This document shows positions 11,734 through 61,830 of a DNA stretch of 64,000 nucleotides, piece by piece (the first letter of the stretch is position 1; the number at the start of each line of letters is the position of its first letter). The notes beneath the pieces are model-generated. The model saw only the letters and a program-made list of their open reading frames with translations, did no database searches and was not told the DNA's origin. Source of the stretch: a bacterium (GTDB lineage: Bacteria; Cyanobacteriota; Vampirovibrionia; Vampirovibrionales; Vampirovibrionaceae); NCBI GenBank assembly GCA_030429585.1, contig JAUIEU010000001.1:554316-618315 (forward strand), written 5' to 3'. A program made the position numbers and the translations under genes.

Positions 11734-12498
11734 CTAGATTTTCTTCCACTTTAGGGCGACGAAGGCCAGGTTGGCAATGGCGGCCATGGGACGAATGAAG
11801 GGGAAGCGGCGGCCTAGTTTTGCCATTTGCAACATGCGGCGCCCCGCCCAACTGGTTTTGTAGTGCTTGCGGGCCCCAATAAATTTTTCCATCAGTAGGC
11901 GGCGCTTACTGCCTTCTTTCATTTTTAGGGCATTTTTTAGGGTATCCCATTGGCTGGCTTTTATGTTTTGGCTGCCGGTGTTGTTGGCTTTTACATGGTT
12001 GACGACCCCATCCATGGCCTCGTTGTAGGTGGTTACGGTGGTTTTGGGGTCGCGGTCATGCTGGGGGTCTAAAATGGTTTCCAGCACATCACTTAGCCGA
12101 TGAAAGGGGGTGCGTTTGGCATTGTTCAGCCCACTATCTAACCCGGCTTTTAGTATTTTACTGCCCTTACGGCTTAACCAAATAGAAAGGGGCAACCCAA
12201 TAATAGGGTACAAGCACATGCCGCCAGGGATGGCCAAGTTGCCTGCGGTAACCGCGGCAGGTAGGCCGTATTTGTACACAAAGCCTTTAATCACACGGCC
12301 ATCGTTGGGGTCATTCATTAATTGTTTTAGGGGCTGCCACAGGCCACTTAGGTTTTTAGGGAGCAGTCGGCTTACCGGGTTACAACCACCAAACCGCACA
12401 GAATCGTTGCCAGTGGCTAGGCTGGCCCTACGGTTGCTACGGGCGGCACCGGCAATCGTAGGTGCATGGGTAGTGGGTGTGGAAAGGGGGGTAATCAT
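11734..12498 (-). CDS. hypothetical basic membrane protein with an N-terminal low-complexity leader ending VRFG
   Basis: 254 aa; T/P/A-rich N-terminus to SVRFG, two hydrophobic segments, Lys/Arg-rich C-terminus. Confidence 0.75.
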   Translation of the reverse strand: MITPLSTPTTHAPTIAGAARSNRRASLATGNDSVRFGGCNPVSRLLPKNLSGLWQPLKQLMNDPNDGRVIKGFVYKYGLPAAVTAGNLAIPGGMCLYPIIGLPLSIWLSRKGSKILKAGLDSGLNNAKRTPFHRLSDVLETILDPQHDRDPKTTVTTYNEAMDGVVNHVKANNTGSQNIKASQWDTLKNALKMKEGSKRRLLMEKFIGARKHYKTSWAGRRMLQMAKLGRRFPFIRPMAAIANLAFVALKWKKI

Positions 12499-12578
12499 AT
12501 GGGGATGACGAAGGTGGGCTCTGCTGTAGGGTGTCTCTCTCTGGGCGGCACAGGGGTGCTCGCTTATGGGGATGAATC

Positions 12579-12633
12579 CCCCTAAAGGCCGCTTGATGCT
12601 AGCAGGGTGGATGTTTGTAACAGTGGGGTTACC
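12579..12633 (-). promoter_or_regulatory. conserved upstream element, copy A (GGTAAC-N6-GTTACA-N13-CTAGCA-N6-GGCCTTTAGGGG)
   Basis: Aligns with near-identical spacing to copy B at 56666-56719. Confidence 0.6.
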
Positions 12634-12766
12634 AGGTTGTTACAAGGGCACTTACTCACATATCCCCAGTGCCACCTTTCCAACACAGGCTGTGCCGTTG
12701 GGTTAGTGGGTGGCGTGCAGGGGGCGTTGTGGGATGAAAAAAATGTCTCTCTGTAAGTATGTCCGT

Positions 12767-12841
12767 TAAAAAGAAAAAAGTGCTGGTAACCGCCCCAAGC
12801 CCTGCGTAGGGCATTGGGCCAGTCGTTTGTCGGTTACCAGC
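12767..12841 (-). terminator. long rho-independent terminator-like hairpin
   Basis: Perfect 11-bp outer stem GCTGGTAACCG/CGGTTACCAGC enclosing an inner stem, followed on the minus strand by ACTTTTTTCTTTTT. Confidence 0.75.
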
Positions 12842-12929
12842 GGGGTTGCATGTCTCTCCTCAAATGGGGTTGCGCTAAGGCTCTATTCTGTTTGTCTCTA
12901 ACCGTGTTTCCTTATTTCTATAATTAATA

Positions 12930-13325
12930 TTAGGCGGCCAAGTTTAGGTGGCGGGTGGGTAGGGTGTGGGAACGACCCAGTAACCGTTTGGCGGTATGCA
13001 GGCCAAATACACCCAGTACCAAGCCTAAAAAGCCGGGGGCACGCATACCCATTTTGCGTGTGGCCCACTTAACAGGGTAGTAGGCCAATGTTGCCTGCAT
13101 TACCGATTTTACCGCTGTTTTTAATACAGAAGGCCGCTTGTGTGGGGCATAGGGCACGGCACTGTAAGGGGTGGGGGTGGTTTTAAACAGGTTTTGTCCA
13201 ACGTTTAGGGCGGCCTCGGTTAAGGGGTGCATACCGCTGGCGTTGGTGGTGGGGTTAATGGGTAACATAACAGTGACTCTCTTCTCTGGGGGCGTGGTGG
13301 GCGGTGATGTGTTGGGGTGTGTCAT
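12930..13325 (-). CDS. hypothetical membrane protein
   Basis: 131 aa; P/T-rich N-terminus, hydrophobic segment, C-terminal LNLAA. Confidence 0.7.
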   Translation of the reverse strand: MTHPNTSPPTTPPEKRVTVMLPINPTTNASGMHPLTEAALNVGQNLFKTTPTPYSAVPYAPHKRPSVLKTAVKSVMQATLAYYPVKWATRKMGMRAPGFLGLVLGVFGLHTAKRLLGRSHTLPTRHLNLAA

Positions 13326-59644: not shown

Positions 59645-59674
59645 AGGTGCTAACGTCTGCTTAATGCCGCTTAG

Positions 59675-59956
59675 CTAGCCTGAGTCAGCCTCGTTTGGGG
59701 CTAGTAGGTTTAGTTCTAGGGCGTGGATTTGGCTGGTCATGTCGTCTTTTAGCACCTTGTGTACCACGCGGTGGCGCTGCAAGGGGTTCATGCCGTCAAA
59801 CTGGGGGCTAACCACCGTAATTTTTAAATGGTGGCCTGTATTTTGAATATGCCCGGCATGGAGGTGGCTATAATCTTCTATGCCTACATGGGTGGCGGCC
59901 AGCTGGTCGGCTAGGCGGGTTTTAACATCTTGGTGATAGGGGGTTTCAATCGTCAT
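59675..59956 (-). CDS. bolA: BolA-family protein
   Basis: DYSHLHAGH, VVSPQFDGM..LQRHR.V, IHALEL. Confidence 0.93.
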   Translation of the reverse strand: MTIETPYHQDVKTRLADQLAATHVGIEDYSHLHAGHIQNTGHHLKITVVSPQFDGMNPLQRHRVVHKVLKDDMTSQIHALELNLLAPNEADSG

Positions 59957-60114
59957 TATTGGGTGGCTTTATAAACAGGTAACAGTAATGTATTAAGAAT
60001 ACCTAAAACACACAATTGTCGGGATTTAGCGCCTTTTACATTACTGTGCGTTCTCGTTACACTAACTCCTATAAAATATAGCTTAAATTACCACTATTAA
60101 GGAAGTCTGCTCCC

Positions 60115-61557
60115 ATGACCGCTGTTGAATCGTTTACACAGCAGGATTACAAATACGGCTTTACCACCGATATCGATTCTGACACCTTTGCCAAAGGCCT
60201 GAATGAAGATGTGGTACGGGCGATTAGTGCTAAAAAAAATGAACCCGAGTGGATGTTGGAATTCCGCCTAAAGGCTTTTGCCTTGTGGAAAACCATGGAA
60301 AAGCCAGAGTGGGCTTATTTAGATTACCCAGAGATTGATTACCAAGATATCAGCTACTATTCTGCGCCTAAAAAGCAAGAAAAAAAGGCGAGCCTAGACG
60401 AAGTAGACCCCGAACTGCTCAAGACTTTCGAAAAACTGGGTATCCCGCTAAGCGAACAAAAGCAGCTGGCTGGTGTAACCATGGCAGTAGATGCCGTGTT
60501 TGATAGCGTCAGCGTGGCCACTACCTTTAAAAAAGATTTAGCCAAGCATGGCGTTATTTTTTGCTCTATTAGCGAAGCACTCCACGAGCACCCCGAGCTG
60601 GTGAAGAAATACCTGGGTACAGTGGTACCCACTAGCGATAACTACTTTGCAGCCCTAAACAGTGCCGTATTTACCGATGGTAGCTTTGTCTACATCCCCA
60701 AAGATACCGTATGCCCCATGGAACTAAGCACGTACTTTCGTATTAATACCGAAGATACCGGCCAGTTTGAACGCACCCTAATTATTTGCGAAGACAACGC
60801 CCAAGTTAGCTACCTAGAAGGTTGTACTGCGCCTACCTTTAAAAAAACTCAGCTACACGCCGCCATTGTAGAGCTTGTGGCTATGGATAATGCCGAAATT
60901 AAATACTCTACCGTGCAAAACTGGTTTGCAGGCGATAAAGACACGGGCAAAGGCGGCATTTATAACTTTGTAACCAAACGTGGCCGTTGCCAAGGCAAAA
61001 ATTCTAAAATTAGCTGGACCCAAGTAGAAACCGGTAGTTCCATTACCTGGAAGTACCCCAGCTGTATTTTACAGGGCGATAACAGCGTGGGCGAATTTTA
61101 TAGCATTGCCCTAACCAATCACCACCAGCAAGCCGATACCGGCACCAAGATGATCCACTTGGGTAAAAACACCCGCAGCCGAATCATCAGCAAGGGCATT
61201 AGCGCCGGGTTAAGCAATAACAGTTACCGCGGCGCCGTTACCATTAAGCCGGGCGCTACGGATGCACGCAACTTTACCCAGTGCGATAGCATGCTAATTG
61301 GCGATGCCTGCCGCGCCAACACCTTTCCTTATATTGATGTGGCTAACAGCAGTGCCCAAGTAGAGCACGAGGCCAGCACTAGCAAAATTAGTGATGAGCA
61401 GCTGTTCTACTTCCAGCAGCGTGGTATACCCACCGAAGAAGCGGTTAGCGCTATTGTAAGTGGCTTTTGCAAAGATGTATTTAATGTATTACCCGGCGAA
61501 TTTGCCGAAGAAAGCCGCCGCCTACTTGGTATTAAGCTAGAAAACTCGGTAGGGTGA
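60115..61557 (+). CDS. sufB: Fe-S cluster assembly protein SufB
   Basis: [72 protein letters not shown]. Confidence 0.97.
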
Positions 61558-61560
61558 TTT

Positions 61561-61830
61561 ATGAATATTCAGCCGAATTTTGGCATTATTAAAGCCAAAG
61601 TAACCCCTCCACAGTTACTTAAAATTGAAGAGACATTTGTTAAACCAGGCGGTCTTACACTACAAAATGATGACGGCAAAGGCACGATTGAACTTAGTGG
61701 CGGTACCGACTTTTTTGAAGCAAAAATGGCAAAAGAAATATTTAATGAGCCATTTGCTCAAAAGGTTACGCTTGTAGATAACGATATGGCAGATGCGGTA
61801 AATCCGATATTAGGTACCACCAACGCTTAA
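61561..61830 (+). CDS. hypothetical protein inserted in the suf operon (N-terminus MNIQPNFG)
   Basis: 89-aa ORF that exactly fills the sufB-sufC gap. Confidence 0.7.

Follow-up and report, generated by a model that had tools for sequence, protein, structure and literature searches.

The window, a stretch of 64,000 nucleotides situated at G000:C1:554316-618315 of a single-contig genome (2,212,179 bp, 50.5% G+C), carries six dispersed open reading frames (ORFs), P0001 to P0006, whose products had been proposed in a preliminary description to begin with a shared disordered leader ending in F-G or a similar pair. All six ORFs read as claimed. The organism is a Melainabacterium, a non-photosynthetic relative of cyanobacteria: the FlhA encoded just upstream of the window shares 63-66% identity with entries labelled as Gastranaerophilales, Melainabacteria, or 'Vampirovibrio sp.' It probably belongs to the Vampirovibrio order, judging by its G+C content, which is 51.4% in V. 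chlorellavorus and 27.5-49.4% in other Melainabacteria (PMC4451040). As reported here, a modular N-terminal tag occurs on numerous proteins that are unrelated to one another and mostly lineage-specific, in several genera of this Melainabacterial order. Four of the six original examples stand (P0001, P0002, P0003, and P0005), whereas P0006 fails. The refined motif reads hydrophobic-[R/K/H/Q/T]-F-[G/S](-G), with F-2, F, and F+1 as conserved positions, and is located in a disordered, acid-poor N-terminal leader rich in S, T, P, N, and Q. The leaders indeed contain neither a hydrophobic core nor acidic residues; the absence of the core is partly built in by the selection of the candidates, which were filtered for a maximum 11-residue hydropathy below 1.7.

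Conservation of the motif in relatives

Judged from the sequences, conservation in orthologues is the strongest evidence for the tag. The protein bodies align at 25-45% identity per family, and the leaders are unalignable apart from the motif. Within the motif the codons differ synonymously (each of the four GGN codons, TTT as well as TTC, TCN as well as AGC), therefore pointing to selection on the peptide and not on the DNA.

For P0001 (..SVRFGG) the pattern [VIL]xF[GS]G was found in 6/6 informative relatives with bodies of 25-36% identity; nine matches had been obtained, of which two without the locus and one mis-picked ORF were left out. The motifs of these relatives read VRFGA, VHFGQ+VHFGG, LLFSG, VHFSG+PKFGG, IQFGG, and VQFGG. 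The motif of P0002 is present in all eight informative loci and in one 65%-identical database protein (P0007, ..PAFSG), the family displaying HVSFGN, PQFGS, MTFGC, ITFGC, INFGS, ASFGP, IRFGL, PTFGG, and PAFSG; a protein homologue search with P0002 returned a single relative. A P0003-like ORF adjoins the YidD-like gene in seven of nine relatives' loci. All seven contain two to three copies of xxF[GS], which precede the membrane span (e.g., PRFS..VNFG..PKFG and PAFG..VNFG..VRFG). In the P0005 family the motif, [RKTL]F[SGAQ]G or RFGY, was detected in 20/20 relatives at 7-25 residues from the likely Met. Since it abuts the folded, conserved N-domain there, the motif of this GH13-like family may be a structural strand instead of a free tag.

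Two further families are situated outside the window. In the long GlgA-like GT5 protein (..AIYFGK) the motif was found in 21/23 informative loci from all three families of the order (f1, f2, and f3), with LRFG, VRFG, IRFG, LRFSG, VTFAG, and IQFAG as variants and two copies in some proteins. It lies about 10-20 residues ahead of the catalytic domain, and in the P0002 and GT5 families alike the distance to the start of the conserved domain is usually 10-20 residues. Family A comprises seven paralogues in this genome and, like family B, consists of hypothetical proteins restricted to Melainabacteria (ESM Atlas; commonest cluster phylum Candidatus Melainabacteria). Its homologues were taken from a library of 1.84 billion representatives, in which the proteins had been called independently. 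Counted by eye, as a regular expression for the domain start matched only 25/98 sequences, 31 of 44 full-length close homologues carry the motif and six more show F[KRA]x. The distant homologues (P0077-P0159) are of low complexity and rich in K, N, and I. Approximately 13/49 of them, again by eye, contain xF[K/R/H]G at the same place, about 10-20 residues from Met (PFKG, AFKG, NFKG, HFHG, EFRG), which may represent a counterpart of the tag in other lineages of Melainabacteria.

Not every instance is conserved. P0006, which the preliminary description had included, shows xFG in only 3/21 relatives' leaders and is no longer counted. P0004 has no homologue in 40 related genomes, and the six-residue prefix before its FG does not amount to a leader. 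A sigma-70 protein (C1:522363, TTFG) was not accepted as a member, since only 1/29 relatives keep its FG. For the leader-bearing aminotransferase at C1:794524 no orthologue was found in 40 relatives, only housekeeping paralogues of about 30% identity.

The window region 42029-50596 is a neighbourhood of glucan genes that is conserved in relatives (L193-L235, L236-L263). It includes the divergent gene pair P0005-P0006, kept in 18/24 family genomes, and a second GH13-like gene at 47504-50596. In several relatives a long GT5 gene is found a few kb from the GH13-like neighbourhood on the same contig.

Table 1. Positions of leaders, cargoes, and further features (positions without prefix refer to the window, those with C1 to the genome; aa, amino acids)
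Feature	Position	Strand	Remark
P0001 leader, 37 aa, ends SVRFG	12388..12498	-	kept in 6/6 informative relatives
P0001 cargo	11734-12387	-	254-aa protein, two-lobed hydrophobic segment, no Pfam family
P0002 leader, 45 aa, ends PLFG	56113..56247	-	8/8 informative loci and P0007
P0002 cargo	55624-56112	-	divergent YidD-like extra paralogue
P0003 leader, 38 aa, ends PGFG	56496..56609	-	motif copies in 7/7 relatives' P0003-like ORFs
P0003 cargo	56331-56495	-	Cys-rich single-pass membrane peptide, in tandem with P0002
P0005 leader, 19 aa, ends TRFAG	46040..46096	-	motif in 20/20 relatives
P0005 cargo	42029-46039	-	giant GH13-like protein
P0006, polytopic membrane protein with Pro-rich leader (..PPFKA)	46368..47507	+	not counted as member
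P0004, 89-aa orphan ORF between sufB and sufC, starts MNIQPNFG	61561..61830	+	
GT5 (GlgA-like), ..AIYFGK	C1:1766934-1769189		motif in 21/23 informative loci
Second flagellar-type export set	C1:544250-550663, C1:720093-722592, C1:951899-954681, C1:1784559-1785722		
UvrB, 814 aa	17806-20250		long N-terminal extension from first start codon
L19, 192 aa	32257-32835		long N-terminal extension from first start codon
TilS, 647 aa	1133-3076		long N-terminal extension from first start codon
HtrA-like, 609 aa	2715-4544		long N-terminal extension from first start codon

Genome-wide excess of the motif and nature of the cargoes

Genes were predicted with a crude caller of our own, which chooses the longest ORF, rates its codon usage, and resolves overlaps by a greedy rule; it yielded 1884 genes covering 87% of the genome. 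The start codons are those of the longest ORF, and the true starts may differ. Expected motif counts were derived from within-sequence shuffles that keep the composition. Among residues 2-61 of 1829 proteins FG occurs 370 times versus 261.8 expected (z 7.0), and in the internal control, residues 101-160, 260 times versus 232.8 (z 2.0). The composition-controlled count thus gives a clear signal, but the plain count of FG within the first 50 aa is only weakly raised (196 versus 181 and 167 of 1352 proteins).

The pattern [RKHQT]F[GS] was found 159 times at N-termini versus 111.5 expected (z 4.7). Internally the count was 88 versus 86.9 (z 0.1) and at C-termini 90 versus 79.5 (z 1.2), the C-terminal matches resembling ordinary folded domains. 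At N-termini the mirror motif [GS]F[RKHQT] gave 113 versus 111.3 (z 0.2), and substitution of Y, L, or W for F gave z values of at most 1.9. F[GSA]G was counted 106 times at N-termini versus 61.5 expected, and the residue after FG is highly variable (N, K, R, C, L, Q). The variant F[RKH][GAS] is not enriched in this genome or in four sampled genomes. When acid-poor, polar, non-hydrophobic N-termini were picked without reference to F or G at lengths of 30, 40, and 50 aa, FG occurred 31 versus 14.8, 33 versus 17.3, and 34 versus 13.7 times, respectively; in internal look-alike segments the corresponding values were 50 versus 49.7, 39 versus 26.7, and 19 versus 14.8. FG ranked first or second among the over-represented dipeptides of these N-termini, with YG higher at 40 and 50 aa.

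Over expectation, there are some 48 additional occurrences of [RKHQT]F[GS] and some 108 of FG. A high-confidence class was defined by rule: the motif has to lie within the first 70 residues and be preceded by 8 or more residues that are acid-poor and non-hydrophobic. It comprises 70 of the 1884 proteins. The distance from Met to Phe in this class has a median of 20 residues (quartiles 13-32). I, L, V, or M is present at positions 2-4 in 71% of these 70 proteins versus 53% of 1814 others, and Ile occupies position 2 in 17% of them.

In motif discovery on the N-termini, as suggested in the preliminary description, expectation maximisation (EM) under a zero-or-one-occurrence-per-sequence (ZOOPS) model drifted toward signal-peptide hydrophobicity in the first 80 residues, and an FG-anchored two-component EM learnt mostly composition. 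No Pfam model (47 proteins scanned) and no NCBIfam model (45 scanned) matches the N-terminal leader. N-termini rich in Pro, Thr, and Ser are frequent across the genome, with TPP in 108 N-termini versus 31 internal stretches. Housekeeping ORFs often display long N-terminal extensions if read from the first start codon; examples are given in Table 1.

We applied the same caller and statistic to sampled stretches of other genomes. In G025 (family f2, 227 genes) RF[GS] was found at 22 N-termini versus 4.6 expected (z 9.7; internally 3 versus 2.4), for instance in ..SVRFGQ, ..APRFGS, ..DIRFGS, ..SPRFSG, and ..RPRFGI. G009 (f1, 323 genes) showed 19 versus 8.1 (z 3.7; internally 6 versus 4.7). No excess was detected in G026 (f3, genus g19, 351 genes; RF[GS] 6 versus 5.4, N-terminal FG 38 versus 55.0) and in G042 from another order (336 genes; 4 versus 5.2 and 47 versus 56.5, respectively), so that the excess is not a by-product of the pipeline. 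The sample of G012, 101 genes, is too small for a statement on the motif excess. Within the order the excess is patchy.

The cargoes are mostly lineage-specific proteins together with divergent extra paralogues of housekeeping enzymes. P0001, P0003, P0004, and P0006 have no match in Pfam; P0002 (55624-56247) gave a weak match to YidD and P0005 (42029-46096) a weak match to alpha-amylase. Among 47 leader proteins 30 are without a Pfam match, compared with 17 of 55 window genes, a rough comparison because the leader proteins were picked by eye. Cargoes that belong to a Pfam family include two class I/II aminotransferases, a beta-eliminating lyase or aldolase, a Ham1-like pyrophosphatase, a RimK-type ATP-grasp ligase, the GT5 enzyme, an S33 hydrolase, a TPR protein, and a collagen-repeat protein. 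All of these score far below the NCBIfam cut-offs and are therefore divergent paralogues. The tagged set of G025 contains a cytidylyltransferase, an AAA ATPase, and a DUF885 protein. The housekeeping counterparts of the cargoes lack the leader, as had been stated beforehand: the canonical YidD is encoded elsewhere (C1:1022880, 95.9 bits) without it, and the same holds true for the short GlgA-like paralogue L245 and for the housekeeping aminotransferases. Taken together with the conservation in relatives, the genome-wide excess bears out a shared modular signal at the N-termini of unrelated, mostly lineage-specific cargo.

Secretion machinery and known N-terminal signals

The preliminary description had asked for the secretion apparatus to be identified. 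The genome encodes two flagellar-type export sets, in which FlhA, FlhB, FliP, and FliF each occur twice, along with two rod-gene clusters and eight flagellins; VirB4 and a contractile (phage-type) sheath were not found, and injectisome-specific parts were not searched for. Beside the canonical set, the second one is complete and consists of FliF-x-FliH-FlhA, FliOPQR-like genes, a second rod cluster, and a second FlhB. One FliF-x-FliH-FlhA cluster (C1:544250-550663) is located 4-10 kb upstream of the window. The autocleavage site reads NPIH in the second FlhB and, as usual, NPTH in the first. Each of the 41 genomes searched in the order, G026 among them, has two FlhA (FHIPEP) genes. A complex prediction with the FlhB2 C-domain and the P0001 leader gave a score of 0.01, which counts neither way. 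The C39 peptidase search returned a single weak match (29.6 bits), and a long S26 peptidase is also present; the searches for a contractile sheath, VirB4, and C39 yielded no usable candidate for a reader.

Two Tad loci with secretins (C1:836425-842614 and C1:1177354-1185039) and a pair of secretins of the type II/IV-pilus type are further parts of the inventory. In the window a Flp/Fap pilin gene (36206-36373) is followed by ORFs with TadE/G-like N-termini (36522-39003). G000:C1:541389-542684, some 1.6 kb away from the second FliF-FlhA cluster on its FlhA side, encodes a protein with the oligomerisation subdomain of eukaryote-type arginine methyltransferases (PF22528, E 3e-14) and methyltransferase domains.

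Early flagellar type III substrates (Salmonella FlgD/E/G) possess a hydrophobic N-terminal signal and a Phe-centred gate-recognition motif which docks on FlhB-C, and a spacing of 19-24 residues is needed, according to excerpts of PMC8983047. Like this signal, the tag combines a disordered N-terminus lacking a Sec-type core and small hydrophobic residues at positions 2-5 with a downstream motif built on one Phe and a linker of variable sequence. Moreover, the organism has two flagellar export gates, and its own rod and hook proteins contain the canonical motif (ARFSALF, AAFGNVL, AEFSDVL). Unlike in the flagellar signal, the conserved partners of the Phe, judged by inspection, are the G/S at F+1 and the residue at F-2 and not a hydrophobic F+4, the spacing often falls below the Salmonella range, and tandem copies exist. 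The cargoes are enzymes and membrane proteins and not axial parts.

Injectisome type III effector signals, including those of chlamydial inclusion-membrane proteins and secreted glycogen enzymes, are not known to have a sequence motif. They resemble the tag in their S/T/P/N-rich, acid-poor, unstructured first 20-50 residues with an aliphatic residue near positions 2-4, and their cargoes resemble the two-lobed hydrophobic protein P0001 and the enzymes of glucan metabolism. The tag differs by its defined and conserved F-[G/S] core; no injectisome was identified in the genome, its specific parts not having been searched for.

As an N-terminal tag with a short conserved motif it is also comparable to twin-arginine (Tat), Sec, prepilin, and double-glycine leaders. 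The leaders shown have no hydrophobic h-region, which, within a set of candidates selected for hydropathy below 1.7, rules out Sec and Tat. A type IV prepilin leader was rejected, for the order of Phe and Gly is opposite to that in G|F(T/S)L(I/V)E and no helix follows; the true pilins of this genome read ..RGFSLIE... Double-glycine leaders, which end in GG, GA, or GS and are cut by a C39 peptidase-ABC exporter, are amphipathic and acidic. The enrichment of F[GSA]G would suit such a leader, but the tag leaders contain much Pro and few acidic residues, and FG is often followed by N, K, R, C, L, or Q. Chloroplast transit peptides, as portrayed in excerpts of PMC10267391 and PMC5571161, share the uncharged, hydroxylated, acid-free extension, a Phe-Gly-(basic) element, and a moderately hydrophobic start. 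However, these are eukaryotic import signals of land plants that are ill-defined in algae, whereas the tagged proteins are bacterial and a related variant of the tag exists in lineages not known to meet plastids.

Possible functions of the tag

We infer that a single receptor reads the tag as an address label. Our preferred reading, held tentatively, is a Sec-independent export signal that could be read by one of the two flagellar-type export gates. The moderately hydrophobic extreme N-terminus (M-I/L-x-T...) and the downstream Phe-centred docking motif would form a two-part signal, to be read by one of these gates in the way of early flagellar type III substrates. The gate would then export divergent paralogues of cytoplasmic enzymes (GlgA-like GT5, YidD-like, aminotransferases, ITPase-like) and small membrane proteins, which might be used outside the cell or in prey. 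This reading is supported by the ortholog conservation in five unrelated cargo families (P0001, P0002, P0003, GT5, and family A), by the restriction of the excess to N-termini, by its recurrence in G025 and G009, by the candidate machinery in the genome, and by the signal-like character, i.e., the missing hydrophobic core (by selection), the aliphatic start, and cargoes that are orphans or extra paralogues. An export signal of type III character is plausible but unproven, and the effector repertoire of the preliminary description is likewise putative.

Several observations speak against export. By inspection the F+4 residue is not consistently hydrophobic, unlike in flagellar FxxxΦ. In a quarter of the high-confidence proteins the Phe is at most about 13 residues from Met, and the distance of 7-25 residues in the GH13 family extends below the spacing of 19-24 in Salmonella. 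Tandem copies suggest multivalent binding over a one-off export signal. Many cargoes require ATP, pyridoxal phosphate, or sugar nucleotides and would be useless outside the cytoplasm unless injected, and neither VirB4 nor a contractile sheath was found in the genome. Membrane spans are not enriched in the high-confidence proteins (26% versus 37%). Finally, two FlhA copies are also present in G026, whose sample of 351 genes lacks the motif excess, so the gate does not track the tag.

The two FlhA copies in every genome of the order that was searched, an F+4 that by inspection is not consistently hydrophobic, the often short spacing, the repeats, and the cytoplasm-type cargoes make a cytoplasmic docking motif nearly as likely as an export tag. 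We consider it a serious though doubtful possibility that the disordered N-terminal tails bind one intracellular hub. Such a hub might conceivably localise proteins, for example to a pole or to the site of attachment, recruit them to a common scaffold, or time their proteolysis in a two-phase life cycle, and in membrane-protein cargoes the tail would remain on the side of the cytoplasm. In favour of docking, cargoes include enzymes and ATPases of cytoplasmic type (aminotransferases, ATP-grasp, GlgA-like GT5, cytidylyltransferase, AAA ATPase). N-terminal tails without a signal peptide fit a cytoplasmic tail, as do the two to three tandem copies in the P0003 and GT5 families, the failure to find a dedicated injection system when VirB4 and the sheath were searched, and an export gate whose presence does not track the tag. 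Nevertheless, the motif is strictly N-terminal without a comparable internal or C-terminal excess, a restriction that pure docking would not need, and the tag favours extra, fast-evolving paralogues over housekeeping copies.

We also considered that F-G could be a processing site, at or beside which a lineage-specific peptidase cuts off a propeptide; a cut before Phe would expose an N-degron. Bacterial ClpS recognises N-terminal F, L, W, and Y. The small residue after F (G/S/A), often followed by another small one (see F[GSA]G above), the usual position 10-20 residues ahead of the conserved domain, and the weak C39 domain and long S26 peptidase in the genome agree with cleavage. We regard it as unlikely, however: the leaders are Pro-rich and acid-poor, unlike double-glycine leaders, the residue after FG is very variable, and tandem copies would mean several cuts. 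Less probable still is a peptide acting in the host after delivery, a mimic of a chloroplast transit peptide or of nucleoporin-type FG that would direct effectors to an algal organelle and consequently requires export as well. The composition and several FGK/FGR instances resemble transit peptides, for which an FGLK motif and binding to Toc34 are described (excerpts of PMC10267391 and PMC5571161). The one cultured relative preys on Chlorella, which stores starch (excerpt of PMC4451040), and the tagged cargoes include GlgA-like and GH13-like enzymes. On the other hand, the excerpt of PMC5571161 calls FGLK and FP/RK 'not clearly defined' in transit peptides of algae, and the xF[K/R/H]G form of the distant family A homologues also speaks against it.

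The remaining explanation is an artefact of over-extended ORF starts or of base composition, with FG as a chance dipeptide. In its favour the starts are those of the longest ORF from a crude caller, P/T/S-rich N-termini are common in the genome, and single instances fail (the sigma-70 protein and P0006). It is nonetheless largely refuted and in our view most improbable: across five families the motif stays in frame and is retained while its codons change synonymously, it is also present in the independently called genes of the public library, the same caller finds no excess in two other genomes, and composition-keeping shuffles are exceeded at z 4-7.

Extending the preferred reading, the tag might, although we regard this as rather doubtful, define an undescribed Melainabacterial sorting system, specific to this branch of the phylum, that marks about 3-5% of the proteome. 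Its leader would carry hydrophobic-x-F-[G/S], or xF[K/R]G in other lineages, and its substrates, including neofunctionalised paralogues of glucan, amino-acid, and nucleotide enzymes, would be sent by a predatory or epibiotic cell via a re-purposed second flagellar-type gate into prey. In literature on Vampirovibrio secretion or effectors, Melainabacteria type III secretion, and Vampirovibrionales since 2019, the excerpts of the matches listed hold no description of such a leader, and the tag is undescribed as far as the literature and family-library searches reach.

A sequence-defined, Sec-independent N-terminal tag would allow the proteins that are sorted or exported in a barely cultured class to be catalogued directly from genomes. 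It would point to its own reader by phylogenetic profiling and would be a portable tag for experiments. Should the reader be a flagellar-type gate, the tagged proteins would represent a large natural collection of substrates that are not flagellar and carry a readable motif, which type III research has so far lacked; if the tag is cytoplasmic, it would constitute a new bacterial network of short linear motifs. Either way, the tag explains why many orphans and odd long paralogues share their kind of first 20-50 residues.

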